From assembly GCA_944390195.1 (NCBI GenBank), contig CALXOZ010000001.1, positions 154,663 through 218,662 of the forward strand: 64,000 bases of DNA, in the 5' to 3' direction. This document shows, one piece after another, positions 2,081 to 45,586 of the stretch (positions are counted from its first letter, which is position 1; each line of letters opens with the position of its first letter). The translations under genes and the position numbers were made by a program. The notes below the pieces were generated by a model. The model worked only from the letters and a program-made list of their open reading frames with translations. It had not been told where the DNA came from and made no database searches. The stretch comes from an uncultured Alphaproteobacteria bacterium. GTDB taxonomy: Bacteria > Pseudomonadota > Alphaproteobacteria > CAAGCB01 > CAG-977.

Positions 2081-2156
2081 AAGATCTGTTTTGTATGATA
2101 AAATAAAAGCTTTTTAACGGTATTGTTAAAAAGCTTTTAATTTTTAATGGTCGGAA

Positions 2157-3263
2157 TTATCTTCCCCGATTTTTGTTTTTCATTTTTAAATTATTGATTT
2201 GTGTTTCTTTTTCTTGTCTTGAACGGGAATGACCGGCTACCATTTTCATGACCTGCCCCAATTCATCAGGATCTTTTATGGAAATGGTTGGATAACAAGT
2301 ATCATTTCTATCTGTAATTCTGTTTTGTTCTCCGTTCATTACATGAATGACGAAAACACGATCCAAAGCCCCTTTCTTTTGGAAATAGTCTCTGACAGCT
2401 TCGACCATATCGCGATCAGTTCCGTTTTTTGCCAAACTGTCTCCCATAACAATAACAGGACCGCCCGCTTTATAGGCTTCTTCCAAGAACCCTGATTTTT
2501 CAACACCGTTACGTTTGCTTTGGTTTTTTGATCTGATTTCCATAGACCCTGTCGGTTCAACCGTGTAAAACAAGGCGTTATTCGGATTTTCGGGAGCGTT
2601 AATGTCTTTTGTGCCGTCCGGATTTTGTCCATTCATAATCTGTTTCATTCCGGTATCGACATATTCAAAAACCTCTTTACCGACTAAAGGGGATTCTTTT
2701 ATAAAATCGCTGAGATTGATATAACTGAGATGTTTCTTGTATTCTGCAAGAATTTTTCCTCGTGTTTCGGGCCAACGTTTAAAAATATCCGTTTTCAACT
2801 TTAAAACACGTTCTCCGACATATCTTTCAAATTTTTGTTCTTTAAAAGAATCTTGTGGAGACGCAGAACGCCGTAAGACGGTCGTTTCGCCATTATTGAT
2901 TAATAAACGACCGTGTCCGGCAACACCGGAAGCTTTTTCAAAATCTTTTACTCCCCCCAATAAATCATAGAAAGCCCCGTCCGGAATTTTTTGTGATGTT
3001 ACATCATTAATGCGTACGTCCGCCCAATGACGTCCTGTAACAATGTAATAAGAACTGCCCGTTTGAGGCAATGAGGTTAAGGCGCGCCTTATATCCGGTT
3101 GCATATAACAACCCGATTTTCCCGTTTCCGCTTTGTTTTCGGCGGCATAATCCGCATTGAATTCCAAACAAGATGTTTTATCCAGATCAGTAAAAACACA
3201 AACAGGTTTTTGATCGGCTTGGGACAACAAGCGTGTTAAATTTTTGCGTGAAATTGCGTCCAT
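2157..3263 (-). CDS. HAD-superfamily (type IIB-like, trehalose-phosphatase-like) hydrolase
   Basis: N-terminal DxDxT motif (FTDLDKT). Motif II IVTGR. C-terminal VIVMGDSLAKNGTDRD (GD...D motif IV). RBS AAGGATAA sits before the ATG at 3263. Confidence 0.55.
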   Translation of the reverse strand: MDAISRKNLTRLLSQADQKPVCVFTDLDKTSCLEFNADYAAENKAETGKSGCYMQPDIRRALTSLPQTGSSYYIVTGRHWADVRINDVTSQKIPDGAFYDLLGGVKDFEKASGVAGHGRLLINNGETTVLRRSASPQDSFKEQKFERYVGERVLKLKTDIFKRWPETRGKILAEYKKHLSYINLSDFIKESPLVGKEVFEYVDTGMKQIMNGQNPDGTKDINAPENPNNALFYTVEPTGSMEIRSKNQSKRNGVEKSGFLEEAYKAGGPVIVMGDSLAKNGTDRDMVEAVRDYFQKKGALDRVFVIHVMNGEQNRITDRNDTCYPTISIKDPDELGQVMKMVAGHSRSRQEKETQINNLKMKNKNRGR

Positions 3264-3714
3264 GACATTATCCTTTTTTATTTTCAGTGTAGATAAATAC
3301 AGATGTTTTTCAATATTAAATTTTTTTTAAATATGTTTATGGCTTTTTTAACGAAAGAAAAAAATAATGGCATTTTTAAAAGCTGTAAAAAATAACTATT
3401 GTTTCATAATATGATAAAAAAAGTACGTTTTGTATTTATTTTCTCATACGGTTGTTTTTCTGAAAAATATAGATTTGGTTTTTGTTTGTGGGATCAAAGT
3501 CAGACAGAATGCTGATTTGGCTGAAAATTTAACTCTTGTTGATTGAAATAGTGATTTTCTTGTGCTCTTTTTCGCCTTTGTTGGAAAAATTCTTTTATAG
3601 TATGAATTAAAAAATTATTTTGATGTCGAAACTGTCTAAAAGTGACTTTTGATTTCAAAACTGCGATAATTGAAAAAAACATTAATTCGTTTTACCGTTT
3701 TATTTTGATGTATT

Positions 3715-4059
3715 TTGACGTCTTGGGAGATCGAAAAGAACAGCATGCAACACGAACCTTCTTTCTTATCCGCTTTTTTAGGGTTGATTTTCGTCCTAGG
3801 GATTATTTTTCTGATTTCGTTTCTTTTTAAAAAATTCGGTTCTTCTTTTATACCGGGAACGGTTAAAAATAAAAAAAATTCAGAACTAATTTTAATGGAT
3901 TGTAAAACGGTTGATTTGAAAAATCGCTTAATTCTCGTTCGCTGTAAAAATAAAGAATATTTGTTAATCATCGGAGAAAATAATACTTTAATAGATTCTT
4001 TTGACGTAAAGAATGAAAGTTGCTGTGAAAATCAAGAGGTCGTTCATGACAATACTTAA
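3715..4059 (+). CDS. fliO: flagellar biosynthesis protein FliO-like (start may be the internal Met at 3745)
   Basis: Small protein with a single transmembrane segment (FLSAFLGLIFVLGIIFLISFLF), immediately upstream of and overlapping fliP. The LILVRCKNKEYLLIIGENNTLI segment is typical of FliO. Confidence 0.5.
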   Translation: MTSWEIEKNSMQHEPSFLSAFLGLIFVLGIIFLISFLFKKFGSSFIPGTVKNKKNSELILMDCKTVDLKNRLILVRCKNKEYLLIIGENNTLIDSFDVKNESCCENQEVVHDNT

Positions 4060-4783
4060 AAAATCCCTGATACCAGCCTTTTTTTGTTTAATGGCTGAGG
4101 TCGCTCGGGCGCAAAGCATTAATATAGATTTAGCAGATGGCGGAGGATCTTCAACAGCAAGAATCGTCCAACTGGTTTTATTGTTGACGGTTTTATCCAT
4201 TGCGCCAAGCATATTGATCATGGTGACTTCGTTTACCAGAATCGTTGTTGTTTTTTCCATCACACGACAAGCTCTTGGGACATCACAGACACCTTCCAAT
4301 ATGATTTTAATTTCTCTTGCTTTGTTTATGACGGGCTTTATCATGACTCCGACTTTTGAAAAGGCGTGGCAAGACGGTCTTTATCCGTTGATTGAAGAAA
4401 AAATAGAAACAAAAACAGCTGTTCAACGCACAATACAACCTTTTAAAACTTTTATGCTGCAAAATGTAAGAGAAAAAGATTTGCAGTTATTCATCGATTT
4501 TTCAAAAACTTCTAAATTCGAAAAAAAAGAGGATATCTCTTTATCGACACTCATTCCCGCTTTTATGATCAGTGAATTGAGGCGTGCTTTTGAAATCGGT
4601 TTTTTGATTTTCATTCCTTTCCTGATTATCGACATGGTTATCGCTTCCATACTGATGAGCATGGGAATGATGATGCTTCCGCCTTCCATGCTTTCCCTTC
4701 CGTTCAAACTGATTTTCTTTGTTATCGTGGACGGGTGGTACATGTTAGTCGGAAGCCTTGTCAGAAGCTTTTCCGGTTCCTAG
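4046..4783 (+). CDS. fliP: flagellar type III export apparatus protein FliP
   Basis: Signal-like N-terminus MTILKKSLIPAFFCLMAEVARAQ. Conserved FliP blocks present (SSTARIVQLVLLLTVLSIAPSILIMVTSFTRIVVVFSI, ALGTSQTPSN, FLIFIPFLIIDMVIASILMSMGMMMLPP). Confidence 0.85.
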   Translation: MTILKKSLIPAFFCLMAEVARAQSINIDLADGGGSSTARIVQLVLLLTVLSIAPSILIMVTSFTRIVVVFSITRQALGTSQTPSNMILISLALFMTGFIMTPTFEKAWQDGLYPLIEEKIETKTAVQRTIQPFKTFMLQNVREKDLQLFIDFSKTSKFEKKEDISLSTLIPAFMISELRRAFEIGFLIFIPFLIIDMVIASILMSMGMMMLPPSMLSLPFKLIFFVIVDGWYMLVGSLVRSFSGS

Positions 4784-4791
4784 TTGAACTG

Positions 4792-7700
4792 CTAAAACGA
4801 ATAAATCACGGTTGCAGAAATGTTTTGCATGGATGATTTTGATCCGCTTGTATTGCTGAATAACAGGTTCAACTTGATATTTTCGGATATTTGACCGTTT
4901 ATTCCGAAACCGATTGTAAACAAAGAAGTTTCTTCGCTGTCTAAAGAATTGAACATTGTTTGCAATGAATCCGAACTGAAATAGGCTTGGGTCGAAGACG
5001 AACCTCCGGATAAATAGTGATCGTAACGCAAATCCAAGAAGATGTATTCAGGCTTGAACATAAACATTTGGAACGGTGCTGAAACAAAACCGGATATCAA
5101 TCCTGCGGACATCATTATGCCCGTATCGGACGCTTTTTTAACGGAAAGGTTAAGATCTGAATTTCCAGTTTCCTGATAAGCGTCTTGATTGATTTGTGTA
5201 AAGGTCAATCCAGCATAGGGTCTGAACGACCAATCACCGGCGTTCATGGGGATTTGTTGAAAATCGTATCCGACATTGACTGTTGCTTCCAAGCTTGTTC
5301 CATCAAAGGAAGCTTGACTTTCAAAAGTTTTTATGGGCAGTTCAGTTACCCTTTTTTTATCATAGCTTTGGAAGCCGAGCATTAATGCTCCGTTAACAGA
5401 CCAGAAATCTTTTTGACGACTGAAATAGGCCCCCAGACGAAGATCCGTTATGTCCATTGAATCGGAATCCTGTTCTACCGAAGTGGTTGCATAACCTGCC
5501 GTCAACCCCCATAAGAAATCTTTTGAATGAACGAAATCCCATCCGAACATCAATCCGCTTCCAGAGCTTTCAGCATCGCCTCTTTGAGCTTCTTCACCGG
5601 CCTCAAAAGTTCCTTTGCCGTATAAGATTTGTCCCCACACTTCGTTTTGAGCGGCAAATTTATTTCCGCCGGAACGCCCTTGCGGACGATAGCGTTTATA
5701 AACATCCGGCCGCGAAGGGACATAGTAGTGATAATCGTCCTGAGGCGTGTTACCAGGCCGGTAGTTGCGATAAACGTCGGGACGCGAAGGGACGGAATAA
5801 TTGTAATCGTCTTGAGGTGTGTTTCCCGGTCGATAATTACGATAGACATCAACGCCGCCCGCACCGGATTCAGCGCCTGATCCAGATGCGACGGAAGGTT
5901 CTGTCCGAGGAGTGTAATATTCTTTTGTATTTTGATATTGTTGAGGTGTTTTGCCGATCTGGCGTTCAAACAAATGAGTCCGTATCCCCGCGGACAGCTT
6001 GTTTGACAAAGGCAATGAAGCGAAATGTATCGGTTTTACCTGATCATTCATTTTATTAATTTGTTTTTTCAGATCGGCTTCGCTGAAAAAGTAGTATCCT
6101 GAAAAATCGTTATAGTGTTCGTTTTTAAACAAATTATCAATAGTAGCGGCTGTCTGACGTTCACTGTCCGTTAAAGATGGAGAGTTGCCTTTATAGGATA
6201 ATGAAAGGTAATCCAATGAAACGGAAACGGTTTTTGCCGTATCGTCTATGGTTGTGTTTGCCGTAACGAATGGACTAAGATTACTGCTACTTTCAAAATT
6301 TTCCGAGATTGTTATAGAATTTGTCGCTGTTAGAATTGTGTAAGATTGGTCTTGACCGAATTCCGGCAAGTTCGCAACATCTATGGACAGTTTTCCACTG
6401 GCAAGATTCAAATCCGTTACAGTCATTTGCTGCAGTTGGGTCGGGTCGTTGATATCTGGAGATAAAACGATAATACCGTAATTGATTAAGGTGTCCGGTT
6501 GTGATGTCAGGTATAAGTTACCGCCCGGTTGGTTGACCAAGGTACCCCCTTTAACGGTGTTTTGCTGTAATGTTGCACCATTGTAAACCGTTCCGGTGTT
6601 TTCAATGACAGCATTTACGGTACCGGTGTTGATATAAAAATTTGCAGTGTTGATGATTTTATTTGTAATGTTTCCGCCATCGAAATAAAAATCTTGCGCG
6701 TTTGTCAAATCAGAAATCGTCCCTGTTCCGGATAAGTAAAAAATGGAAGAGTTTTCTACCGATCCGACAGAACCGCCGGATAAATTCGTTGTTCCTGCAT
6801 TGATTAAACTTTGGATTGTTCCGGAATCGATTTGAATTGTGCCGTTCGCTTGTGACGATACGGTATTATTAACGGTTCCTCCATTGACATAAAATGTTCC
6901 GGCGGAAACATTGACGGCTCCGGCCAAGGAACCTGTCAATTTCAAAGTACCCTCTTCAACAAGAGTGGTTCCTAAATAAGTGTTCTGTCCGGCAAGAGTT
7001 AAAGTCCCCTTGCCTAATTTTTTTAAACCGACATTAGCTTCCGGATGTGTTGTTGCTGTTGTTGTTGGCGTTGCTTTGCGTTGTGAGATATTATTGCTCC
7101 ATGTGCTGTCATAGTTTTGAACGTCTATTGTGTAAACATATTCGTTGTTAACATAATCGGTCTGTTCCGAAAGCCGGTTAGCATCAAGATATCCGGGACC
7201 TTTGATTGCACTGGCTAAGTCGATAATGCCCTGTCCGAACACATCACTATAGGAAACATCAACGCAATAAACACCGCCTGATGAACAAGAATAGGCACCC
7301 CCCAATTCCGCTTGAACGATAGTGTTTTTTTGTGCATCAGTCCATTCTCTGCCATAGCCATCACTTGTGCCGAAAAATAAAAATTGTGATTTTCCATTAT
7401 CTTTTTGGATCATATAGTCGCTGAAGGCAGCATAATTTTTATTCGCTGTGGAAAAAAGAACATCGGCAAGTTGTTTTCCCCCCATGTACGGAAATGCGCT
7501 GGATACAACGGCGGCGGCGCCTGAAATCATGGGAGCTGCTGCGGAAGTTCCTGAAAAAGAACCATAAGAGGTCGCACTATCGGATGAGGCTGCTGTCAAA
7601 GATCCGACGGGAGCGGTTAATGACCATTCTTGCGCCCCTTGTGCCAAGTTCGTATAACTGGCTAGAAAATACGGGCTGGAAACAGAATAAAAAGGATCAT

Positions 7701-8367
7701 AAGCTATAGCGCTGATGATGTTGTTTTTAAGTGTCGGATCCTGTACCGGCAAGGAGGCGGGAAAAGCGTTGGGAGATAATGATGTTTCGTTACCTGCCGA
7801 AGCAACGATCAATTTGTCTTTGGCAACCAGATATTTTGCCGCGTTGACATAATCTGATATATCCGACGGTACGTTTACTGATCCGAAACTGTTATTGATG
7901 ATTTTTACTGAATCATACATATCGCCGCTTAATGTCTGCCATGCGCGTAAAACAGTATAACATGTCGGACAATCGACTTCATCATCCAAATCTATGGCAA
8001 AGGCTAAAATTTTCGCGTTATAAGCGACACCGTGCATACCCAAACCGTCTTTTTGTCCGGCAATGATGCTTGATACGGGGGTTCCGTGGTCTGCTATGTC
8101 TTGAACATTGAAATCGGTTTGTTGCAAATCACTGAATTGTTCGGAGAACTCTTGATGATCCACCAATGTGGCATTGTCGACAACGGCAACTGTTACTCCT
8201 GATCCGGTGAAACCTGCGGCGTAAGCGGCTGCGGCTCCCAAGGCATCATAAGCCAATCTATTAGCATTATATTCGTCTTCCGATGTTACAGGGGTTTCTG
8301 TCTCTTGTGCCAAAGCGTTTTGAGATAACAGCATTGAAATTAAAAAAAGCAGAGTTCTTTTATTCAT
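4792..8367 (-). CDS. autotransporter with subtilisin-like (S8) serine protease passenger domain
   Basis: Signal peptide MNKRTLLFLISMLLSQNALAQ. S8 motifs present (DHGTPVSSIIAG, GTSAAAPMISGAAAVV). C-terminal beta-barrel translocator ends ...ATVIYSF. Internal 24-aa tandem repeats. Confidence 0.85.
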   Translation of the reverse strand: MNKRTLLFLISMLLSQNALAQETETPVTSEDEYNANRLAYDALGAAAAYAAGFTGSGVTVAVVDNATLVDHQEFSEQFSDLQQTDFNVQDIADHGTPVSSIIAGQKDGLGMHGVAYNAKILAFAIDLDDEVDCPTCYTVLRAWQTLSGDMYDSVKIINNSFGSVNVPSDISDYVNAAKYLVAKDKLIVASAGNETSLSPNAFPASLPVQDPTLKNNIISAIAYDPFYSVSSPYFLASYTNLAQGAQEWSLTAPVGSLTAASSDSATSYGSFSGTSAAAPMISGAAAVVSSAFPYMGGKQLADVLFSTANKNYAAFSDYMIQKDNGKSQFLFFGTSDGYGREWTDAQKNTIVQAELGGAYSCSSGGVYCVDVSYSDVFGQGIIDLASAIKGPGYLDANRLSEQTDYVNNEYVYTIDVQNYDSTWSNNISQRKATPTTTATTHPEANVGLKKLGKGTLTLAGQNTYLGTTLVEEGTLKLTGSLAGAVNVSAGTFYVNGGTVNNTVSSQANGTIQIDSGTIQSLINAGTTNLSGGSVGSVENSSIFYLSGTGTISDLTNAQDFYFDGGNITNKIINTANFYINTGTVNAVIENTGTVYNGATLQQNTVKGGTLVNQPGGNLYLTSQPDTLINYGIIVLSPDINDPTQLQQMTVTDLNLASGKLSIDVANLPEFGQDQSYTILTATNSITISENFESSSNLSPFVTANTTIDDTAKTVSVSLDYLSLSYKGNSPSLTDSERQTAATIDNLFKNEHYNDFSGYYFFSEADLKKQINKMNDQVKPIHFASLPLSNKLSAGIRTHLFERQIGKTPQQYQNTKEYYTPRTEPSVASGSGAESGAGGVDVYRNYRPGNTPQDDYNYSVPSRPDVYRNYRPGNTPQDDYHYYVPSRPDVYKRYRPQGRSGGNKFAAQNEVWGQILYGKGTFEAGEEAQRGDAESSGSGLMFGWDFVHSKDFLWGLTAGYATTSVEQDSDSMDITDLRLGAYFSRQKDFWSVNGALMLGFQSYDKKRVTELPIKTFESQASFDGTSLEATVNVGYDFQQIPMNAGDWSFRPYAGLTFTQINQDAYQETGNSDLNLSVKKASDTGIMMSAGLISGFVSAPFQMFMFKPEYIFLDLRYDHYLSGGSSSTQAYFSSDSLQTMFNSLDSEETSLFTIGFGINGQISENIKLNLLFSNTSGSKSSMQNISATVIYSF
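5685..5860 (-). repeat. about 2.3 copies of a 72-bp in-frame tandem repeat inside the autotransporter gene (encodes PDVYRNYRPGNTPQDDY[N/H]Y[S/Y]VPSR)
   Basis: Near-identical 72-nt units are visible directly in the DNA. The protein shows PDVYRNYRPGNTPQDDYNYSVPSR / PDVYRNYRPGNTPQDDYHYYVPSR / PDVYKRYRP. Confidence 0.8.
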
Positions 8368-8378
8368 ATTTCTTGCCC

Positions 8379-8678
8379 TTATGAAAGGTTAAAAGGGATG
8401 GAACTGGAATATTTGGAAAATATGGATTCCATTTTCGTTGCGAAACCATATTTCATTTCAATATTTGAGATTTTTTGCTTTAAATGTTCGTCTTGATTTT
8501 CAAGGCGGATTTCTTTAATCTTTTCTTTATATACTTTCTTGAACTTCAGTATATTAAGAATGATCATGTCTTTCAACGGATATTTTTTGTCATTTCCGTT
8601 TTTATCGTCTGACCTTTTTACAGAAACATCTGTAAAAACAAAAGACATGGAATATGGTATAAAAAGATGTTTTTCCAT
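8379..8678 (-). CDS. hypothetical small protein
   Basis: 99-aa ORF between the autotransporter and rubrerythrin. Weak RBS. No recognisable motif. Confidence 0.3.
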   Translation of the reverse strand: MEKHLFIPYSMSFVFTDVSVKRSDDKNGNDKKYPLKDMIILNILKFKKVYKEKIKEIRLENQDEHLKQKISNIEMKYGFATKMESIFSKYSSSIPFNLS

Positions 8679-8786
8679 ATATTATCTCAAAGGTTAAAAT
8701 TTTTTTATAGCATAACCTTAAAGAATATATGAATCATTAAAAAAAAGCGGGTATTTTATCCCCGCTTTTAAAATTAACATTTTATT

Positions 8787-9281
8787 TTAATCGATTTTAA
8801 TGAACATTTTTCCGCTTGCCTTGCAAATAGGGCATTGTTCGGGAATGTTTCCGACAATTGTTTCACCGCAAACAGGGCAGACATAAATGTCGGCAGCGAT
8901 ATTGTTACCCAAGTTTTCCAAAGCGTCTTTATAAAGACGGGCATGCGTTTTTTCTACCGTGTTCGCCATGGAAAACGAACGTTCGGCCGTTTTGTTGCCT
9001 GATTTTTGAGCTTCTTCAATCATTGGAGGGTACATACTTTCAAATTCATAAGTTTCCCCGTTAATAGCCTCTTGCAGATTTTCTTTTGTTGTTAGTATCT
9101 TATTAGCAGCGCGTAAATGATTTCCGGCATGGATTTTTTCTGCGCTTGCAGCTGCGCGGAATAATTTTGCAACTTGAGTGTAACCTTCTTTATCGGCTTG
9201 AACAGCAAAAGCGCTGTATTTTTGATAAGCTTGTGATTCTCCTGCAAAAGCAGCCATTAAATTATCCAAAGTATTTGACAT
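8787..9281 (-). CDS. rbr: rubrerythrin
   Basis: True start is MSNTLDNLMAAFAGESQAYQKY (ATG at 9281 with an AGGAAAC RBS). The track ORF is a spurious extension across the tRNA. Ferritin-like di-iron region plus C-terminal rubredoxin-like CPVCG...CPIC. Confidence 0.85.
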   Translation of the reverse strand: MSNTLDNLMAAFAGESQAYQKYSAFAVQADKEGYTQVAKLFRAAASAEKIHAGNHLRAANKILTTKENLQEAINGETYEFESMYPPMIEEAQKSGNKTAERSFSMANTVEKTHARLYKDALENLGNNIAADIYVCPVCGETIVGNIPEQCPICKASGKMFIKID

Positions 9282-9382
9282 GAATAAGTTTCCTTGTTGT
9301 TTAGAATTATTATAAAAAACATTATATGTCTTTTTTTTATTAAAGCAACTAAAAAAACAAAGTAAAAGATCATATAAAAAAC

Positions 9383-9411
9383 TTGATATAATCAAGCAAA
9401 CAGAGTAAATA
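9383..9411 (+). promoter_or_regulatory. sigma70-like promoter for tRNA-Arg (TTGATA-N17-TAAATA)
   Basis: TTGATA at 9383-9388 and TAAATA at 9406-9411, 11 nt before the mature tRNA 5' end. The -35 region also forms an imperfect TTGAT-N3-ATCAA dyad. Confidence 0.35.
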
Positions 9412-9422
9412 CTCTTATAAGT

Positions 9423-9499
9423 GGTCTCGTAGCTCAGCTGGATAGAGCAACAGCCTTCTAAGCTGTGGGTCGAGCGTTCGAATCGCTCCGAGATCACCA
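9423..9499 (+). tRNA. tRNA-Arg (anticodon TCT)
   Basis: Manual cloverleaf fold: acceptor GGTCTCG/CGAGATC, D-stem GCTC/GAGC, anticodon stem ACAGC/GCTGT with loop CTTCTAA, T-stem GAGCG/CGCTC with loop TTCGAAT, discriminator A, encoded CCA. Confidence 0.9.
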
Positions 9500-9505
9500 A
9501 TATCA

Positions 9506-9534
9506 CCCCCTTGGTCTTCAAGGGGGTTTTTTTT
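9506..9534 (+). terminator. rho-independent terminator after tRNA-Arg
   Basis: Hairpin CCCCCttggtcttcaaGGGGG followed by a T8 tract. Confidence 0.7.
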
Positions 9535-10603
9535 AGATCTGTTCTTAAAATCGGTAAAAAAATTTTCTATCACATTTTTGTTCTTTTTAAGAATGGGAAA
9601 ATTTGGGGATAAAGCACCTCTTTTCTCCGGTAAACCGGAATTTTGGAATCAAAAGTGGGCGAATCGTTGAAAATTATCAATTTATCTTGTTTTTTTTATC
9701 TGAAGATTTAAAGGAAAACTTGGAAATCTCATTTGTTCCACACGATAGAATATTATTCTGAAATGAAGAACAAGCTCGCTTTTTTTTGTGAAACAAAAAT
9801 AACTGGATACTTTTTAGGATACAATTATCAGGTAAAGAATAAAAAAATACCAACTGTTTATTTTCCTGAACGGAATCATGTTGTTTAAACTTGGAATGTT
9901 TTTTGCTTTCATATCTTTTTCGTGAAAGGGGTTATAAATCTTCTCTCGCTGTTACACCGAAAATACTGATAGAGAAGATAAAATTTTTGATATTGATGAA
10001 GGTCTTACTGCGGATGATGGAATTTATATCTATAAAAAGTTCATTAATAATAACAGGATTTATTTCCTACCCTCTTTTCAAACATAAAAAAAAGTGCATT
10101 TTTTGTCGGGACGCGTTGTTATCTGTTTTTAAACTGGCTTATTTATATTTTTTACGCTTTATCAGACTTGAATTTTTGTTTTTTAGAAACCGGAATTTTG
10201 ATTTTTGCGTTTGTACATGGGGTTTGACCGGTTTTCACTTTGCTTTTCTTTATGCTGATCGTCACAAAACAAACTCAGAAAACTCTGTTGGATTTTTTCA
10301 AGATTGTGGCGGCATCCGTTCGGAATCAACTTTTATCAAGCCTATATTTTGCGCTATTTTTGTAAATAATTTTATTATTTTTCATTATTCAATTTAAAAA
10401 TACAATGTAAACTGAAGATTAGTTATCTTGTTTCAAGATTTAATCAAAATTTTTTATTGATTGTTAATTCTTTCCGTCAGACAAAAGAAAAGTGGTTTTC
10501 TTTTTTTATGGCTTCCAAAAGATCTTTATGAGGTTTTCTGATATTTTTACATATTTGTAAATTATACATTTAAATGATTATAACAATATTTTTGTTTTTA
10601 ATT

Positions 10604-11596
10604 TCAATTACTTAATACCGCTTTGATTCCTAACGCTATTTCGTAAGCTAAATTTATTGGAACAGCATTGCCAATCATTTTATAAGCATTATCAGTTGCA
10701 TTATAAATAAATTTAAACGTATCTGGAAATCCTTGAATTCGAGCTATTTCTCGTATCGTCATTCTGCGATATAAATGTTCTTTTTCTTTAACAAAACAAT
10801 ATTTGTTTTCCTTAATTTTTATCATTTTCGGTGCTTGAGGGTGTAACTGGCATTGACGTCCAGAAGCCTGGACGGTGTAGGCTTGTTCATCCCATGATTT
10901 TACACGGTTTCTACTCATAAAAATGGGAGAGTATGCACCAGTAAAATATTCATTATTGTTTATAGCTTCAGGATTGTGATGATTGTTTTTTCCCGCCGGG
11001 ACAGCAGTAAACTGTAAATCCCAAATAACATCTCGTAGGGTTTTTTTCTTATAATCGTTTACAGTTGAACCACATGGAAATCTAAAATGGATATTTAAAT
11101 CGTTTCTAAAACCAATATAAAATACTCTTTTCCTTTCTTCTGCAACTCCATAATCTTTTGCATTTACCATTGTTAGCGATACATCATAACCAGCTTCTTT
11201 AAACAGATTTAAAATACTTTGAACGGCTTCTGAATTTCTGTTTGCAAGCATTCCACTGACATTCTCAGCGAGAAAAAAGCGAGGCTGTTTTTCCTTTAAA
11301 ATTCTTATATAATCATAAAAGAGTCGTCCTCTTTCATCATTTATACCGCGTAAAGCTCCTGCTTCTGACCATGATTGGCATGGAGGACCTCCGATAATTC
11401 CATCAATTCCACATGGAAAATCAGAAGCGCCTATCTTTCGAATATCACCCTCAATCAAATGTGTATGTGGATGATTTATTTTGAATGTTTCCCAAATGGT
11501 TTTATCAAACTCATTAGCAACAGGAATTTCAAATCCCGCTTGTTCAAATCCCAAATCTAAACCACCGCAACCACTAAAAAGACTGATAATCTTCAT
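10604..11596 (-). CDS. DNA (cytosine-5)-methyltransferase, M.NgoPII/M.HaeIII-like (GGCC)
   Basis: Near-collinear similarity to M.HaeIII/M.NgoPII as I remember them: [11 protein letters not shown] (motif I), GGPPCQSWS (motif IV PC), [41 protein letters not shown] present. Confidence 0.9.
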
Positions 11597-11615
11597 AAAG
11601 ATCTCCCTATATATA

Positions 11616-12452
11616 TTACTTACTAAATGAAATTAACTTCGCTTCGTTTAGTTGAGCGGGATTGTCAGGGTTTTTAATTCTAATATCTTCAATTTTTAAG
11701 TTTGGTGTTTTTTGCTCTAATTCTAAAAGATCTTGGGTATTATCAAACTGTCTCCATTTGTTATTGTTAATTATGCTCATAAAGTTAAAAGATTTGGATG
11801 TTGTTTTGTAAACATAATCAAAAACTCGCCAAGGATTTTCAATACCCCACATACCTCTAACTCTTAAATAAGTAATCCCTAACGGATCAATGCGATTAAT
11901 ATGTCCAAGCTCTCTTGTCTGAGCAAATTCTATTTCTGGAATCGTTTCAACACCGTTTTTAATGGTTTCTTTTATTTTTTGATAACACTCCTCGGAAGCA
12001 CAATAGTCCATTCCATAAACCATACAGAGCTGCTTTAGTTTATTGTTTTTTACAACACCTACCACATAAATTATATCTTTTTCTGACCAATTTTCAGCTT
12101 CTCGACAAGCTTTTGAAATCATAGGACTTGATGATTTAATTTTACGTTTTGGGTAGCTACTATTTAGAGCAAGAGCTGAACTCTCTTGCTCTATTTTTTT
12201 TACCTCAATCGCATCTCCATTTTTTAGCATCGCATCTGGTGGATTCGCATTATTTCCCAAATAAGAAAAAACATTTGAGATCATTTCAATTCTTTTGTTT
12301 CCCGATTGATCTAAGGTGTTGGCAAAGATATCTTTTACATATTCTTCCAGTGCGTCTCCAGTATTATTAGCACGGTTGTTTCCTAGATTATCATTAAGAA
12401 TTTGTGTTCTTGGATTTTCAATTAAATTTACAATAGCATTTATGATGTTCAT
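11616..12452 (-). CDS. type II restriction endonuclease, probable R.NgoPII-like (GGCC) partner of the methyltransferase
   Basis: 278-aa ORF 19 bp upstream of the methyltransferase on the same strand, in R-then-M order as in NgoPII. The length matches R.NgoPII. RBS AAGGAAA. Identity is by context; the endonuclease sequence itself was not independently recognised. Confidence 0.6.
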
Positions 12453-12951
12453 ATAATATTTCCTTTTTGCACAAGTATAATTAAAAATTTTTTATATTAA
12501 AATAAAAATTTTTTAATTATAATTTGTAGGTATATACTTACCATTTCAAGTGAACTAACGAAAGATGGTATTAAAAAATTAAGTTGTATAAAATTAAAAT
12601 TCTTATAATGTCTTTGTATATCCTTATGTTATGTGAAAATATTTTGAACACATGTTTTTTATATTTATTGAAAAAATACAATTAAAATAAAAAAAATATA
12701 TTTTTATTTATAAATCGGTTTCCGTTTATTGTTTTTCTTTTATTTTCTTTATGATAATGGGGCGTTGGAGCTAACAGGTAAAAGCAATCTATAAGTTCTC
12801 TTACTTAATTGTAAAGGAATTAAAAGGAAGTGCTTTTAATATTCCAAGAGGGTCATTTTTAATGTTTTTTATAAAGATAGTCTGTTTTTTTACTCTTGTG
12901 TTATGAATCATACTTTATTTTAAAATTTTTGAGAATTGGCAGGAAAGTGAT

Positions 12952-13548
12952 ATGTCGGAAAACGATTTTTTAGAAATGGCTCGAAATAATCAAAAAAAAG
13001 CTTTTGATATTATCCGGAAGTTGAAAATTTATGAAAACTGGGAAGTGATCGGGGCAAAAGTGAATCTGATTGGGTCTTTAAAGACAGGGGTGTTGATGAA
13101 GCATTTAGACATTGATTTTCATGTTTATACAACGGATTTAAAAATCGAAGATAGTTTTAAAGCTATAGGCGGTATTGCCTGTAACAAAGGGGTTATGAAA
13201 GTAATTTATATGAATTTGTTGGATCATAAGGATGCTTGTTTGGAATGGCATATGTTTTATCAAGACGACGACGGGCGAGAGTGGCAAATTGATATGATTC
13301 ATATTGTCAAAGGGTCGTATTATGACGGATACTTTGAAAAAGTTGCCGACCGGATAAATCAATGTGCAACAGACGGGCAAAAAGAAAGAATTTTACGATT
13401 AAAATATGAAACACCGGAAACGTTTCAGATCCCCGGTATAGAGTATTGCCAAGCCGTTTTGCAAGAAGATGTAAAATCTTTCAACGAATTGTTGGAGTGG
13501 AGGAAAAACAAACCGATGAAAGATATTATCGAATGGTTGCCCGAATGA
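12952..13548 (+). CDS. Pol-beta-superfamily nucleotidyltransferase-fold protein (ANT/Lnu-like or stand-alone defense nucleotidyltransferase)
   Basis: Canonical nucleotidyltransferase motif hG[GS]-x10-DhD (LIGSLKTGVLMKHLDIDFHVY), as in AadA/ANT(2'')/Lnu enzymes. 198 aa. AGGAAAG RBS. Sits divergently from the R-M operon inside the islet. Confidence 0.6.
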   Translation: MSENDFLEMARNNQKKAFDIIRKLKIYENWEVIGAKVNLIGSLKTGVLMKHLDIDFHVYTTDLKIEDSFKAIGGIACNKGVMKVIYMNLLDHKDACLEWHMFYQDDDGREWQIDMIHIVKGSYYDGYFEKVADRINQCATDGQKERILRLKYETPETFQIPGIEYCQAVLQEDVKSFNELLEWRKNKPMKDIIEWLPE

Positions 13549-14266
13549 TATTTTTTTAACTATTCTTTATTTATAAAGATAATCTATTATATAATTGTTT
13601 ATTGTTTTATTTGTTTTTTTTATTTTATTGTTTTTTTGATAAAAATTTAATATTATTTTATTTTGTTGAAATAATTTTATTTTTTAAAAAAGTTTAAGAT
13701 TTTATATGCTCTTTTTAAGAGATTTATTAAAGTTGTTCTGTTTTTTTATTTCAAATATACATTTAAACGAATTATATTTTTATAAATTTACATTCATTTA
13801 TGTTTAAATTAGATGCATAAAAATGTAAAAATAACCTTCCTCTTTTTTTATATAGCTGAAATTATCTTTCGCGGGTTGAGAGCCGTTTCAAATTTTGAAT
13901 ATGTATGACAAGCTAATCCATTAGTTAATTCTCCTTTTCCTTTCCGAATAATTCTTACGAGTTATTTATTTTCTCGATAAAGATATTTTTTTCTTTTTTA
14001 AACAATTTTTGAAACAGATCCGTTGTGAATTTTTATTCGTGAGTATAAATTACATTCAGATAAAAATAAAAAAATCCCTTTCCATTTTGATTTAGTTAAA
14101 ACAATATTTAAAACAATATTTACTTCTTCGTTTGTTTCAGGATTGGTTTACTCAAGTAATCCCTTCTTTTTCTACTTTCATTTGTTCCTTGAGAGGATCT
14201 CTATTATAGCATAAATACTGCTGTTTCTAAAAAAATGTATTAACAGTCAAAACACGCCATAAATAT

Positions 14267-14296
14267 TAAAAAGCCCTCGTTTGAGGGCTTTTTTCT
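14267..14296 (-). terminator. rho-independent (bidirectional) terminator downstream of htpG
   Basis: AAAAAGCCCTCgtttGAGGGCTTTTTT hairpin flanked by A- and T-tracts. Confidence 0.6.
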
Positions 14297-14310
14297 GGTT
14301 TTCGAGCTTT

Positions 14311-16170
14311 TTATTCGACGGCCGACATCATGAAATCCGTTACACGTTGAGAAAAAGCGGCAGGATCTTTAATCGGTTCGCCTTCAATGATTTTTGCTTG
14401 ATCGAATAAAACCTGTACCAAAGCTTTGTTTGTATCGCTTGTATCTCCGGCGGCGACCTTTGCAGCCAGTTTTTTGATCAATGGATGACGCGGATTGATA
14501 TCAAAGTAACGGTTGCTTACATACAAAGACGGTTGATTGTGTTGACGCATCAAGCGTTCAAGGTGGATCGAAGCTTCTCCATCTCCTGTTGACAGAGCAA
14601 CCGGGCTTTTAGTTAAACGCTCTGTCGTTCTGACTTCTTTGACTTCATCGCCGACGATTTCCTTGATGAATTTTTTCAAAGCATCCAAATCCGCTTGAGG
14701 CGCTTTTTCTATTTTATCTGATTGATCCGTAATTAATAGAGTTTCCAATTCTTGAGCTCCGGCATTAACGGATTTAATCGGTTTTTCCTTATATTGCGTC
14801 AATCCTTGAGGCCAAAATTCATCAATCGGGTCTGTTAACAACAGGACTTCAATCCCACGGGAGGCAAAGCCTTCCAGTTGAGGATTGTTGCGTAATACGG
14901 CCAAGTCGTCCCCTGTAATATAGTAAATGCTTTTTTGTCCGTCTTTCATACGGGAAATATAATCGGCCAAAGTTGTCAACTCTTCTGAATTTGTAGAATA
15001 AAAACGGCAAAGTTCGGCGATTTCCTCCCGATTGTAAGAGTCTTCAAAGATCCCTTCTTTTAAAACGGCACCAAAAGCGTCCCAAAATACCGAATATTCT
15101 TTTTCATTCTCACTTCTTTTTTTCAATTCGCCCAGAATACGGCGGACGACACCCGTTTTAATCTTTGATAAGACAGGAGTTTTTTGTAACATTTCACGTG
15201 AAACGTTCAAGGGGAGTTCTTTTGTATCGATGACCCCTTGAATGAAACGAAGGTAATTCGGCAACATATCCGGTACTTGATCCGTAATGAAAACTCTGTT
15301 GATGTATAATTTGATTTGTGCATTACGGTTGGGCTGGAAAATGTCATAGGGGGTCTTTGTCGGAATGAACATCAATGCCGTATATTCTATCGTCCCTTCC
15401 GCCTTGTAGTGTAAAATATCCCACGGATCGTCAAAAGCATGAGAGATGTGACGGTAAAAATCTTTATATTGCGCTTCAGTGATCTCGGCTTTGTTCCTTG
15501 TCCATAAAGCGCTGGCCAAGTTGATCGTTTCCGTTTCCCCCATGTAATGCATGATGACCGGGAAGGAAATATGATCTGAAAATTGGCGTACGATCCGCCG
15601 GACTTCAGCCGCTTCGGCATAATGATAGGCGTCCGGTTTCAAGTAAAGGGTTATTTTTGTTCCGCGGGTAACATCTTGTTCTTCGGTGATCGTAAAAGAT
15701 CCTTTTCCAGTCGATGTCCATAACCAGCCTTCTTCTTCTCCGGCCTTGCGGGAACGGACTTCAACCTTTTCCGCAACCATGAAAGCGGAATAAAAACCGA
15801 CGCCGAATTGACCGATTATCGTTGCGTCCTTTTGTTTGTCACCGGTCAGGTTGTTTAAAAACTCAGCCGACCCCGAACGCCCGATTGATCCCAAGTCTTT
15901 TATCAGGTCTTGTTTGTTCATGCCGATGCCGTTGTCGTCTATCGTCAAAGTGTGGGCATCTTTGTCCGGATAAATGTTTATTTTAAATTCTCCGTCCCCT
16001 TTTGCAATATCCGGTTTCATAATTGCTGCGTAACGTAACTTGTCACAAGCGTCCGAAGCGTTTGAAATCAATTCTCTTAAAAAGATGTCCGTATCCGAAT
16101 AAAGAGCGTTGACAACTATATCTAAAATTTTGCCGACTTCAGCTTGAAATTGCATTTTTTCTTCCGACAT
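14311..16170 (-). CDS. htpG: molecular chaperone HtpG (Hsp90)
   Basis: MSEEKMQFQAEVGKILDIVVNALYSDTDIFLRELISNASDACDKLRY is the classic Hsp90 N-terminal ATPase signature. Full-length, 619 aa. Confidence 0.95.
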   Translation of the reverse strand: MSEEKMQFQAEVGKILDIVVNALYSDTDIFLRELISNASDACDKLRYAAIMKPDIAKGDGEFKINIYPDKDAHTLTIDDNGIGMNKQDLIKDLGSIGRSGSAEFLNNLTGDKQKDATIIGQFGVGFYSAFMVAEKVEVRSRKAGEEEGWLWTSTGKGSFTITEEQDVTRGTKITLYLKPDAYHYAEAAEVRRIVRQFSDHISFPVIMHYMGETETINLASALWTRNKAEITEAQYKDFYRHISHAFDDPWDILHYKAEGTIEYTALMFIPTKTPYDIFQPNRNAQIKLYINRVFITDQVPDMLPNYLRFIQGVIDTKELPLNVSREMLQKTPVLSKIKTGVVRRILGELKKRSENEKEYSVFWDAFGAVLKEGIFEDSYNREEIAELCRFYSTNSEELTTLADYISRMKDGQKSIYYITGDDLAVLRNNPQLEGFASRGIEVLLLTDPIDEFWPQGLTQYKEKPIKSVNAGAQELETLLITDQSDKIEKAPQADLDALKKFIKEIVGDEVKEVRTTERLTKSPVALSTGDGEASIHLERLMRQHNQPSLYVSNRYFDINPRHPLIKKLAAKVAAGDTSDTNKALVQVLFDQAKIIEGEPIKDPAAFSQRVTDFMMSAVE

Positions 16171-19223: not shown

Positions 19224-22200
19224 TTAAAAAGACAATGTTAAATCCGCACTCAATTGAGAATATTTTTCCTGTTCGATAAAATGTGAAAATTCAATTGAAA
19301 ATTTTGTTTTATCCGTTTTGTACGCAAGACTGAAATTAATCTCTGAACGGTACTTTTGCTTTTCATCATATAAATCGAAAGTTCCGTTCATGCCGTTCAT
19401 ACCGACTTTTAAAGAATACGGAGATGCAAATTCCCGATAGATCATGCTGGAAAAGTTCAAGTACAACATGTCATTGTCTTCCGTCTTTTTTTGGTAGCCG
19501 ATATTCAAACCCAAACCGCTTTCAACGGACAGAAAGCTGTTACGAGGAATTGTCAAGCTGTAGGCTTTTTCGTCTTCTTTTCCGGATTGATCATACAAAA
19601 TGGCATTTGCTTGGACGCTCGGTTCTATATTTATCCCTTTAAAGTCAAAAGAATATCTGACTTCGTTCTGAAAAGAATAAGAATTTCTTTCAATAAAACC
19701 GTAATAAGAACCGAATTGCCCACTTTGGCGTTTGTAATATTCTTTGGCATAACCGTATTGAATTGAAGAAACGGTTTTTAAACGGTTTTTTTGAAAACTG
19801 ACGGGAAACATAAAACTGACGGATGTGTGTTGTTTTGAACTTTCTTTGTTTGTCGTTTCATAATTGTCGGCAGCCATACCGTAACCGATGTTGATCGACG
19901 GGGAAACATTGATTCCTATCAGTGAAAAGGCTTTTTCGTTTGAAATTTTAGAATTTGCAGCCTCCGATACGTTTGAAAAGCTCCAAACAGGATCCTCTTT
20001 TGTGGCAAAATGAGCGGACATCTGCTGATTAAGCGCAAAATTCAATTTACGCATGGCGGACATATCATGTCGGGTGAAATCTTTAAAAACACTTGTTCCG
20101 GTCAAGCCGTCAAGCGAATCGGAAAAAGCGCTGACAGAATCAATTGACTTTAATATGCTGAAAAAAGATTCATTGTTTTGCAAGGTATAATTCCGTGTCA
20201 GAAAATCTGCAAGAGATCGGCTTGAAACCAAACTGTCGAAAGGTCTCATTGTTAATACGACATCTTTATTATTTTCCGATAAACCGGCATTGAACAAAAC
20301 CGATTTTGATGAAAGTTTTAATTTTGACACATCAGGTGAATCTATTGCGTCTTGGACGGTATAAGATGTTTGAAAACCGTTTTGAACGAAATTTTCAGAA
20401 ATGTTTAAATTTCCGGAAATGTTGTTTGTCGCTTGAAAAACACCGCCTTGTTCTAACGTAACGTTACCGCCGTAAGAATCCAGATTAATACTGTCTGCGC
20501 TGAAAATTCCACTGTTGAGCAAAGTGGCACCATTAAGTTTTATTTCTTCTCCGTTTTCGTTTCCGGATAAGGTTATTACTCCTGTATTATGAACCGTTGC
20601 TCCGACTTCCGCGTAAATGCCGTAAGCTGTTCCGCCAGTTTCCGAATCCGGTGTTATGATATTTCCGTTATTATTGACAGCGGTACGAATGATTTTTATC
20701 GTTCCTTCATTGAAAACCGTTGTTCCTACTGGGGCATACATACCGATAGCTGTTCCCGAAGATAAATTATTAATGATAATTTCTCCGCTATTGATGGCAT
20801 AGTTTCCGGTCGCGTACATACCGACGGATGTTCCAGTTCCCAAGTTTTCCAAAAGGATTGTTGAATTTTCAGGGTTTTGATTGTTTTTTCCATACATACC
20901 GATAGCTGTTCCTGAAACGTTGTCCAAAACAACCCGTCCATGGTTGAAAAGATTTTCTCCGATCAATCCGATGACGGTTCCGGAAGAAAGGTTGTACATG
21001 GCAAGAGAACCTGAAAAATTGGAAACATTTGTCTCGTTTAGTTTTATGCCAACAGCTGTTCCATTTCCTTCATTGGTAATCGTAATCTTGTCTTGAGCTT
21101 CATAAATCATGTCTTTCGCATAGATTCCGTACGCCGTTCCCGTTCCTTGGTTCTTTATGAGGATATCACTTGTTCCGCTCGGGCTTCCGACAGAAGAGTT
21201 TAATGCGTATATCCCATAAACCGTTCCTTCGCTTTCATTATCAATCTCAATGATTCCCGAAGCGTTTGTTCCACTGGAGTTATAAACTGAACCGTTATCT
21301 GTACGCATACCGTAAGCGTTTCCAGAGGAAACATTCCTTATGTAAATTTTCCCTAAAGCCGTTCCATAGCTGCCGGCTGATATTGCATTGTACAGACTTG
21401 CGTATTCGGAATAGATGCCAAAAGCATTGCCGGTACCATTATTTACAATGGAAATGAATCCCTGACTGCTTTTTTCTTTATCATCTGAAAAATATGAACC
21501 TCCGGAAGCGTTGTGTACAGATGAAGATGTTCCGGAATGACTGGAATATAATCCATACGCATCTCCGGAACGGTTATTTTCTATATGGATTGTTCCTTTT
21601 CCGTTATAATAGTTATTGGTTGTGTATTCTATTTCCGAATAAATGCCGAAAACGGAGGACGAAGAGTTTTGTGTCAGTGTAATGTTTCCTATGCCGTCGT
21701 AAGAATTCCCTCCTATATTGAAAGGACTTCCGGAATCAAGATAAATTCCGTAAAAAAAAGAATACGCGTCGTTTGTTTTAACGATGTTTTCGTTATAATA
21801 TCCTGATGGAACCGAAGAATCTTGATTGCTACCGCTTTCGCTATTGCTGCCAATGGCGATTCCCGCAGCAATGATCAATCCGCCAGTAACCAGTTCTGTT
21901 TTTGTCAATCCGAAAAATGTACTTTCTGATGCGGATGTTCTCATAGACCAAGTTGCCACGTCCGATTTATTTAAAACGGCATTCTGGTTAGCTTTCGGTA
22001 TTTGCTTAAAACAAGCGGCGGATTCATTTGCTCCCGCTTTTCTTAAAGTCTGATAGGCTTCTGCGTTGTTTTCCATTGTGGCGCGACATAACGCGGTTAT
22101 TCCGTTCTTATCGGTAACATCAATATTTGAAACATAAAACAAACGATCTTGATTTCCTGTTTTTGCCAAATCGTAAATTTCTTGTTGTGACATGGCAAGA

Positions 22201-45177: not shown

Positions 45178-45586
45178 AATTTTTAAAGAATTTTCGTTTA
45201 ATAAAATTTCTATTTTGGGAAAAAACGGATTTGTTAAAAATGGAAACGGTATCTTAAAGCTTCTTTTTTAGTTTTTATTTTTAATCTCCGGTGTTTTTAT
45301 GGAAAAATTTGCGTCAGCTTGGGGCGGATAAACATTCCGGATGCGTTATTATATGCCTGAATTTGTAAAATGATAAAAAACATTAAAGAAAAAAATTTTA
45401 TTGGAGAGGCTTTTTGAAAACTCACGGTTGTCATTTTTATGACTAAGTATTTCTTTGTTAAAAAGTATTGCAGGTAAAAAATCTGGTTGAGCTCAGAGCG
45501 GGGGGCTTATAAAAAAAGCGTCCGGGAATAAAATTTCCGGACGCAAAACAAACAAAGGAAGATTGAAAAAAAACAATAAGGAGATA

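Follow-up and report, generated by a model that had tools for sequence, protein, structure and literature searches.

Restriction-modification (R-M) cassettes and other defence hotspots are exchanged by homologous recombination in their flanks in Helicobacter, Neisseria, and Streptococcus. Islands with a tyrosine integrase of the P4-like/AlpA-primase type, in turn, lie directly 3′ of a transfer RNA (tRNA) gene and bring along defence-type cargo. Here, we describe a locus at which both kinds of element appear to have been at work. It is found in a stretch of 64,000 nucleotides (64 kb; hereafter, the window) of contig CALXOZ010000001.1, from an uncultured gut alphaproteobacterium. Between a tRNA-Arg(TCT) gene and the 3′ end of htpG, the window holds three intact genes: those of a DNA methyltransferase (M) and a restriction endonuclease (R), and that of a stand-alone nucleotidyltransferase (NTase) of the Pol-beta superfamily. 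An earlier, sequence-only reading had taken everything between the tRNA and htpG for a single islet, probably a fixed remnant in which no integrase is left.

Our results point to a different history, which we regard as probable: the interval is a composite of four layers, namely an ancestral tRNA-NTase pair, an integration site in the tRNA, an R-M cassette, and the movement of this cassette among strains. In the clade of uncultured gut and rumen Alphaproteobacteria to which the window belongs, the ancestral state would have been a stand-alone NTase gene directly after tRNA-Arg(TCT), and the 3′ half of the tRNA would have served a family of tyrosine-integrase islands as its attachment site. In the window's species, the gap between tRNA and NTase would then have grown and would now hold decayed remains, that is, a short island motif, an HU/IHF-like pseudogene, and AT-rich DNA, the integrase and the attR site having been lost. 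A 2.39-kb defence cassette would have lodged within this island remnant, between the tRNA and the NTase gene (9500-12950). Its M.HaeIII-like enzyme is predicted to methylate the inner cytosine of the host's GGCC sites, whereas phage or plasmid DNA that comes in with unmethylated GG^CC would be cut at this site by its NgoPII-family endonuclease. The two genes are probably transcribed as one minus-strand operon. Among strains, the cassette would be gained, lost, and truncated via recombination in the conserved flanks and not through mobility genes of its own. The identities of the genes, the polymorphism, the empty and occupied sites of relatives, the composition, and the depletion of GGCC are observed; we infer the order of these events, the mechanism of recombination, the activity of the R and M enzymes, and the substrate of the NTase.

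Integration at tRNA-Arg(TCT) in related species

The tRNA-Arg(TCT) gene (9423-9499, + strand; 67 bits in Rfam) is the only tRNA that ARAGORN detects in the window. It is followed by its intrinsic terminator, a hairpin at 9505-9527 (+ strand) with a 10-bp stem, six GC pairs, and a T run behind it. The NTase gene lies at 12952-13548 on the same strand. We located NTase homologues of related Alphaproteobacteria (59-63% identical) together with their flanks. After the same tRNA-Arg(tct), the NTase gene follows at a distance of 48 bp in contig L200 and 335 bp in L195 (L195/L196); in the window's species, the gap amounts to 3452 bp in the window itself and 1216 bp in the strains of haplotype B described below. 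Upstream of the pair, an S8-peptidase autotransporter is found in both L195/L196 and L200, and L200 has FliO and FliP as well, as in the window. Proteins of L200 and of the window are 80% (FliP), 61% (autotransporter), 53% (FliO), and 59% (NTase) identical, values that are compatible with vertical descent of the tRNA-NTase block. The order of tRNA-Arg and then NTase is kept in at least three species, with FliO/FliP/autotransporter genes upstream.

Contigs L199 (1-6000) and L200 (5876-6000) come from one related species and agree in their NTase protein and in the genes downstream of it. Upstream of its NTase gene, L199 holds an island with genes for a tyrosine integrase (PF00589), HTH_17, Toprim_3, and DUF3987 proteins. 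At its end, the 3′ half of the tRNA is repeated exactly over 45 nt, from the anticodon loop to CCA, after which the terminator and the NTase gene follow as in L200. The 45-nt repeat is a classical attR, and L200 is the empty site. Hence, the 3′ end of tRNA-Arg(TCT) is a real integration site of an integrase-island family in this clade. The L199 island occupies the tRNA side, which makes the NTase gene the chromosomal flank, attB′. In our interpretation, the NTase gene is an ancestral chromosomal neighbour of the tRNA and not cargo of an island.

Short traces of the same family may persist in the window's species. The 24-nt sequence AACTTTTCTATCACTTTTCTATCA stands beside the L199 integrase gene and recurs, 100% identical, 76 nt after the tRNA in the conspecific contig L189. 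In L189, this sequence is a tandem version of TTTTCTATCAC, of which the window has one copy (9563-9573, + strand); the 10-mer of this motif occurs only three times in the 64 kb, counting both strands. This copy is possibly the relic of an integrase arm-type site of a former island. Contigs L189 (6671-6990) and L190 (1-330), in the part that corresponds to window 9470-9705, also carry a tRNA-Arg allele with compensatory changes in the T-stem, GAGCG/CGCTC having become CCGCG/CGCGG. The changes match the L195-type 3′ half and are followed by about 230 bp of diverged sequence. An element-borne att copy that replaced the 3′ half of the tRNA would give such a pattern, and the traces may thus be read as relics of arm-type and att sites. 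On this reading, the L199 island should begin, at its other extremity, with an intact tRNA-Arg and, behind it, an arm that contains TTTTCTATCA.

A strain-variable R-M cassette

The M gene (10604-11596) and the R gene (11616-12452) both lie on the minus strand, R upstream of M, with a 19-bp spacer and no controller gene. The M protein matches the C5-cytosine methyltransferase family PF00145 (E 5.8e-99), carries the PCQ and ENV motifs, and aligns end to end with M.HaeIII (PDB 1dct; residues 1-327 vs 1-323, E 3e-132), the target-recognition domain included. The R protein covers positions 2-262 of the 262 of the RE_NgoPII profile (PF09521, E 8e-108) and matches the PADLOC model REase_II (E 3e-125). 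Its nearest non-self homologues are 71% identical, and the named homologues, lower in the match list (66-68% identical), come from gut Firmicutes (Oscillospiraceae, Ruminococcus, Clostridia). As the similarity of M to M.HaeIII extends through the target-recognition region and R is of the NgoPII family, GGCC is the obvious specificity to assign. The pair thus has the look of an ordinary, working Type IIP R-M system of the HaeIII/NgoPII (GGCC) type. Twenty base pairs upstream of the R start, repeat analysis revealed an A/T-only, perfectly spaced palindrome of 52 bp (12473-12524; 26-nt arms, 88% complementary), which may be a promoter or operator of the R-M operon.

Genomes tend to avoid the site of their own resident restriction enzyme. 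In the window, GGCC occurs 25 times against 136 expected under a Markov model, a 5.5-fold depletion, and CCGG, GCGC, GATC, AGCT, and other 4-bp palindromes are near expectation. This depletion is independent support for the GGCC specificity. GGCC is also depleted in an R-M-less contig of the same species (L001; 13 vs 40 expected) and in some sister species (3 vs 104 in L020, 8 vs 74 in L022, and 24 vs 97 in L019), so that GGCC restriction would be an old pressure in this lineage. As a side observation, L020 avoids CCGG as well (27 vs 148 expected).

Conspecific metagenome contigs, with flanks 97-100% identical to the window, were fetched by exact-protein look-up. Their comparison shows that the cassette, 2387 bp at 10314-12700 as delimited by junction alignments, is polymorphic for presence, absence, and a stump among strains. 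It is present in haplotype A (three contigs, L101-L103). In haplotype B (ten contigs, L001, L002, L004, L187-L192, and L194), 152 bp stand in place of 10314-12700, and both junctions are sharp. In haplotype C (seven contigs, L003 and L005-L010), all that is left is a 75%-identical 5′ end of R with its upstream region. After the R stump, unrelated sequence follows; the next 200 bp are 77-83% identical to the window, and identity is about 100% again in the NTase gene. Over the NTase upstream region (12701-12951, + strand; with the ribosome-binding site AGGAAAG 7 nt before the ATG), identity is 99-100% for haplotypes A and B, as opposed to 77-83% for C. Haplotype C thus has the appearance of an allele that came in from a diverged lineage. 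Its left part (L003 1-246) has no similarity to any fetched locus.

Two further contigs stand out. Contig L102 leaves the window sequence at 10249 and runs into PglX/Type IIG methyltransferase fragments, which match the BREX-1 PglX model (E 9e-45 and 8e-21). At L102 2345-3007, beside the GGCC R-M pair, we observed two PglX fragments out of order (profile positions 823-899, then 655-767); the PglX/Type IIG fragments may have decayed, or they may belong to a locus of shuffling specificity. Meanwhile, contig L104 has the two R-M genes alone (window 10622-12466), 97% identical, in unrelated flanks, for which no similarity to any fetched locus was found. The composition of the two genes also sets them apart: their GC content at third codon positions (GC3; 0.218 for M and 0.245 for R) is the lowest among its 41 long open reading frames (ORFs), with z scores of −2.9 and −2.5 against +0.1 for the NTase, and their codon usage is the most deviant among them. 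No mobility gene bounds the cassette, and a search for bounding inverted or direct repeats returned only low-complexity A/T matches. Together, these comparisons suggest that the cassette turns over via recombination in the conserved flanks.

The DNA around the three genes is extremely AT-rich. The GC content of 9500-14310 is 0.296 vs 0.402 for the rest of the window, the lowest value in the window, and of all 500-bp windows scanned across the 64 kb, those with GC below 0.25 fall exclusively at 12201-13050 and 13301-14250. Non-coding DNA is AT-rich across the window as a whole (GC 0.309). Three stretches are free of genes, namely 9500-10603 (1.1 kb), 12453-12951 (0.5 kb), and 13549-14310 (0.76 kb; GC 0.22). 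The last of these comprises a spacer kept in the species (13549-14267) and a bidirectional terminator hairpin (14268-14293), before the 3′ end of htpG at 14311 (14311-16170, − strand). In the first, the AT-rich non-coding DNA beside the tRNA (9528-10148) is likewise kept in the species; most conspecific contigs match a probe of 9540-10313 at 99.2-99.7% identity, and L189/L190 match it at about 92%.

We scanned the three stretches against Pfam in six frames with stops masked. The scan of 9528-10148 was negative, and adjacent to it, at about 10149-10385 on the minus strand, lies a pseudogene of the HU/IHF family (Bac_DNA_binding, PF00216; E 2e-5, 25.2 bits vs a cut-off of 22.4 in the stop-masked translation, profile positions 11-86 of 90) with at least three in-frame stops. 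This was the only match: no remnants of an integrase, transposase, or recombinase were found in the three stretches. An Rfam E-value scan of 8300-14500 returned the tRNA, with all other matches far below their gathering scores. The sequence-only reading had described the flanks as gene-free, with junk ORFs only, which holds for most of their length and fails for the HU/IHF-like pseudogene of the left stretch; its suggestions that they might conceal a decayed recombinase or small RNAs found no support, as the pseudogene is all that was detected and no Rfam family scores there. The pseudogene straddles the left junction of the cassette, and the 152-bp filler of the R-M-less strains encodes a colinear N-terminal (5′) part of it. 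Hence, the filler looks like the uninterrupted state. On the opposite strand, a 168-aa ORF (9891-10397) was judged spurious, for it has a TTG start, a Phe/Leu-rich composition typical of a T-rich strand, and no family match in four libraries, crosses the cassette junction, and overlaps the pseudogene.

The nucleotidyltransferase family

The NTase of 198 aa had no significant match in Pfam, NCBIfam, PADLOC, or PHROGs. It belongs to a family with about 1350 close members in a database clustered at 90% identity, which form 737 clusters at 50% identity (E up to 0.001). Most of the 80 metagenome loci returned for this family are from human-gut assemblies, and members on long contigs have Bacteroidales-type neighbours. 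Identity across phyla is 50-64%, and among Alphaproteobacteria, Campylobacterota, and Bacteroidota of animal guts the protein is conserved at 50-60%. Our literature searches found no description of the family.

Invariant residues of the family include G41-S42, H51-x-D53-I-D55-x-H57, C96-x-E98-W-H100, W111-Q112, and H117, and D114 is nearly invariant. Among these, G41-S42, D53-x-D55, and D114 are a plausible catalytic set. The AlphaFold2 model (mean predicted local distance difference test score, pLDDT, 91) displays an NTase core and a helical C-terminal domain. In a Foldseek search with this model, terminal uridylyltransferases (TUTases) came first (E ~1e-5, TM ~0.5), and sequence identity to the structural matches is 9-16%; single-sequence and profile searches of the PDB gave no real match.

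Whatever their R-M state, the 20 conspecific contigs that reach the NTase gene or were fetched through its protein all contain it. In other genomes, its surroundings vary. In Helicobacter typhlonius it stands beside HNH and methyltransferase genes, in Dysgonomonas between ClpB and RbfA, and in Alphaproteobacteria beside an ABC exporter or RodA-PBP2-MreDCB genes. In Bacteroidales, it is part of a conserved, housekeeping-like synteny (UvrD, NTase, PAS-LuxR, RRM, DEAD, CSD), and when 492 neighbouring ORFs from 93 loci were clustered, this Bacteroidales-internal synteny was the only sign of a conserved partner gene. A phage origin was rejected, as 2.9 million viral contigs yielded just two matches. 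In at least seven clusters (with the members P0244, P0248, P0253, P0257, P0258, P0265, and P0283), the NTase domain is fused to GNAT acetyltransferases; these fusions involve several GNAT subfamilies on either side of the NTase domain and recur on many contigs. We also observed a DUF805 fusion in one member (P0292). Another protein, P0002 (195 aa), is a chimera: its N-terminal half is about 50% diverged, and its C-terminal half is identical to the window protein, which suggests recombination within the NTase gene between lineages.

Described NTase systems offer no ready assignment. The protein has no match to the hidden Markov models (HMMs) of cGAS/DncV-like nucleotidyltransferases (CD-NTases) and no adjacent effector gene, by which antiphage signalling systems based on cyclic oligonucleotides (CBASS) are recognised. 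No partner ORF of the kind seen in MNT-HEPN pairs was found in the 0.5 kb that flank the window gene to its left and right, nor in the contexts of the homologues, and there was no match to a known antibiotic nucleotidyltransferase (ANT/Lnu) family model or structure. Our leading candidate for its function, somewhat short of an even chance, is a metal-dependent nucleotidyl transfer whose acceptor would be a small molecule (an antibiotic or a xenobiotic), and transfer to an RNA 3′ end ranks after it, as a clearly smaller possibility. A role as synthase of a signalling nucleotide is less likely because no effector is present. Only tentatively do we suggest that this is an unrecognised enzyme family with a miniature cGAS/TUTase-like fold, which may represent a new class of small-molecule nucleotidylyltransferases or an RNA 3′-tailing enzyme. 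The NTase acts independently of the R-M pair, to which nothing links it in function.

Alternative histories and comparison with known systems

The wider gene order bears on how much of the interval can be counted as an insertion. The closest sister species by HtpG (L011-L023, 82-95% identical; L021, 76%) are uncultured gut and rumen Alphaproteobacteria in which Suv3-htpG is kept. In L011-L014 and L018, homologues of the window ORFs at 356-2080, and then argH, follow within 0-5 kb after htpG; in L016, L019, L020, and L022, no homologues of these ORFs were found within the 10-kb flank of htpG. Missing between htpG and the argH-side genes in L011-L014 and L018 is a 12-kb block of the window (2080-14310), comprising a 368-aa gene, fliO/fliP, the S8 autotransporter, orf99, rubrerythrin, tRNA-Arg, and the NTase gene. 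With fliOP, the autotransporter, rubrerythrin, and the tRNA among its contents, this block owes its place here to a lineage-specific rearrangement of core genes and not to an island. The boundary between htpG and the NTase gene is a synteny breakpoint. A few observations were made alongside. The space after htpG varies in the genus from 0 to 5 kb; in L014, five lipoprotein-like genes occupy it. Another lineage-specific insertion, beside the conserved Suv3-htpG pair, is a 1023-aa ORF that lies downstream of Suv3-S4 (19227-22295, − strand) and lacks a counterpart at this position in L011-L014. The 1191-aa autotransporter (4792-8367, − strand) carries tandem (V)YRNYRPGNTPQDDY(N/H)Y(S/Y)VPSRPD repeats ahead of its beta-barrel, and in related species this position is taken by one or two paralogues (L195).

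That the whole 4.8 kb from tRNA-Arg to htpG, with the NTase and both flanks, is one fixed, integrase-less island remnant is a very unlikely explanation. The interval does adjoin a tRNA that an integrase island uses in a relative, its GC content is the lowest in the window, and in L011-L014 and L018 the homologues of the ORFs at 356-2080 stand near htpG, the genes of the interval being absent between them. The explanation is largely refuted, however, by the empty sites, in which tRNA and NTase are adjacent with almost no spacer (L195, L200). The L199 island lies on the tRNA side and leaves the NTase as the attB′ flank. In addition, the GC3 of the NTase is core-like, the R-M cassette is polymorphic rather than fixed, and the block missing from the sister species contains fliOP and the tRNA itself, as expected of a core rearrangement. 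Much of the sequence-only reading is nevertheless borne out: the tRNA, the NgoPII-family R gene, the M gene, and the Pol-beta-fold NTase gene lie where it had placed them, the GGCC type of the pair agrees with PF09521 and the M.HaeIII alignment, the region is extremely AT-rich, with all windows of GC below 0.25 inside the interval, and it has no integrase, judging by the six-frame Pfam scan and by tblastx against the L199 island. Its idea of an island site at the tRNA 3′ end was right in kind, with L199 occupied and L200 empty, and has to be narrowed at the NTase gene, where the chromosomal side begins. The empty site that it proposed to look for exists in L200 (48 bp) and L195 (335 bp) for 9500-12950 only, the NTase staying in place; as to composition, M and R deviate in GC3 and codon usage, the NTase does not in GC3, and non-coding DNA is AT-rich all over the window. 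Its inclusion of the NTase and of the 0.76-kb spacer before htpG in the islet is contradicted by the tRNA-NTase order in at least three species, the GC3 z score of +0.1, and the presence of the NTase in 20 of 20 contigs. The term "fixed remnant" does not suit a 2.39-kb cassette with presence, absence, and stump alleles, and the repeat of the tRNA 3′ end that it proposed to look for is not in the window.

We consider it highly improbable that the NTase is a third defence component, whether a sensor or signalling partner of the R-M pair or a stand-alone anti-phage enzyme. Its gene is divergently adjacent to R, the H. typhlonius homologue has HNH and methyltransferase genes beside it, and in haplotype C, too, an R stump precedes the NTase gene. 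Against this stand its lack of matches in PADLOC, Pfam, or PHROGs, its retention in 17 strains without an intact R-M pair, the lack of an effector or conserved partner gene, the mere two matches in 2.9 million viral contigs, the housekeeping-like synteny in Bacteroidales (UvrD, PAS-LuxR, RRM, DEAD, CSD), and its size, about two-thirds of that of a CD-NTase. An old cassette deserves more weight, and yet it is unlikely that the cassette is ancestral at this locus, with the R-M-less and stump haplotypes as independent deletions and no recent acquisition. GGCC is depleted even in R-M-less strains and several sister species, and the 75%-identical R stump of haplotype C at the same position implies long residence of R-M alleles. 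However, the GC3 of R and M lies 2.5-2.9 standard deviations below that of the window genes, showing no drift toward the host value, a 97%-identical copy occurs in foreign flanks (L104), the closest R homologues are 71% identical, with gut Firmicutes as the named members of the list, and the 152-bp filler, with its colinear 5′ part of the HU pseudogene, looks uninterrupted. An old polymorphism and repeated re-import may both be true at once.

Several observations also weigh against the four-layer composite that we favour. A search of the region for repeats of the tRNA 3′ end gave no match of 16-30 nt with up to four mismatches, and blastn-short gave 7-11-mers only; a single chance 16-mer match lies elsewhere in the window, at 45485. 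Tblastx of the window against the L199 island found nothing. With no attR, integrase fragment, or protein-level similarity to that island in the window, the island origin of 9500-12950 rests on the relatives and on the 11-nt motif. In L011, the sister species closest by HtpG (95%), an NTase homologue (61% identical) lies on the other side of Suv3-S4 and without a tRNA, so tRNA-NTase adjacency is not universal in the genus. The haplotype counts (three, ten, and seven contigs) derive from exact-protein look-up and hence are not population frequencies. Finally, neither microhomology nor a duplication is obvious where the cassette meets its flanks, and the route of recombination is therefore a putative one.

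If the composite reading is correct, the main value of the R-M system lies in its annotation and in a clean natural set of metagenomic alleles, some empty, some occupied, some reduced to a stump, and one with extra cargo. This set would illustrate the turnover of a bare restriction cassette inside the scar of a tRNA-targeted island, and the strong depletion of GGCC indicates that the lineage as a whole has been shaped by this specificity. Nothing but the NTase family might lead somewhere new: it is abundant in human-gut Bacteroidales and without annotation, and the fusions to GNAT domains provide a lead to its function that can be tested.

Compared with known systems, the R-M pair is a textbook case in a new host. 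It shares with the HaeIII/NgoPII Type IIP systems an M protein that aligns end to end with M.HaeIII, an R protein that spans the whole RE_NgoPII profile, adjacent and co-oriented genes, and a GGCC-depleted host genome. It differs in its host, an uncultured gut alphaproteobacterium, in the order of R and then M without a controller gene, and in the distance of R, which is 71% identical to its nearest non-self homologues, a figure that does not refer to NgoPII itself. With the tRNA-targeting integrase islands, the locus shares a position directly 3′ of a tRNA, defence-type cargo, an intact member at the same site in L199, and a short motif common to both; unlike them, it has no integrase, attR, or protein similarity to the L199 island, and what varies is an internal cassette 815 bp from the tRNA, as opposed to excision and integration at att sites. 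A parallel to the cassette's behaviour is offered by the R-M hotspots exchanged by recombination, likewise with a bare gene pair devoid of mobility genes, presence, absence, and stump alleles at one locus, alternative cargo (PglX/Type IIG) in another strain, and divergent imported alleles (75-83%). Here, by contrast, the mechanism is a putative one, and the junctions show no target duplication or microhomology.

The NTase, for its part, resembles the cGAS/DncV-like NTases and the terminal uridylyl- and adenylyltransferases in its NTase core with a helical C-terminal domain, and in G41-S42, D53-x-D55, and D114 as the plausible catalytic set. It is only 9-14% identical to them in sequence, is smaller (198 aa vs roughly 290-380 aa), comes without an effector gene or RNA-binding modules, and matches none of the library HMMs. 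The invariant H51, H57, C96, E98, H100, and H117 are specific to this family in comparison with both groups, and the recurrent GNAT fusions are a feature of this family and not of either group. Collectively, the locus is best described as an ordinary defence islet accompanied by one mildly interesting enzyme of an unfamiliar kind.

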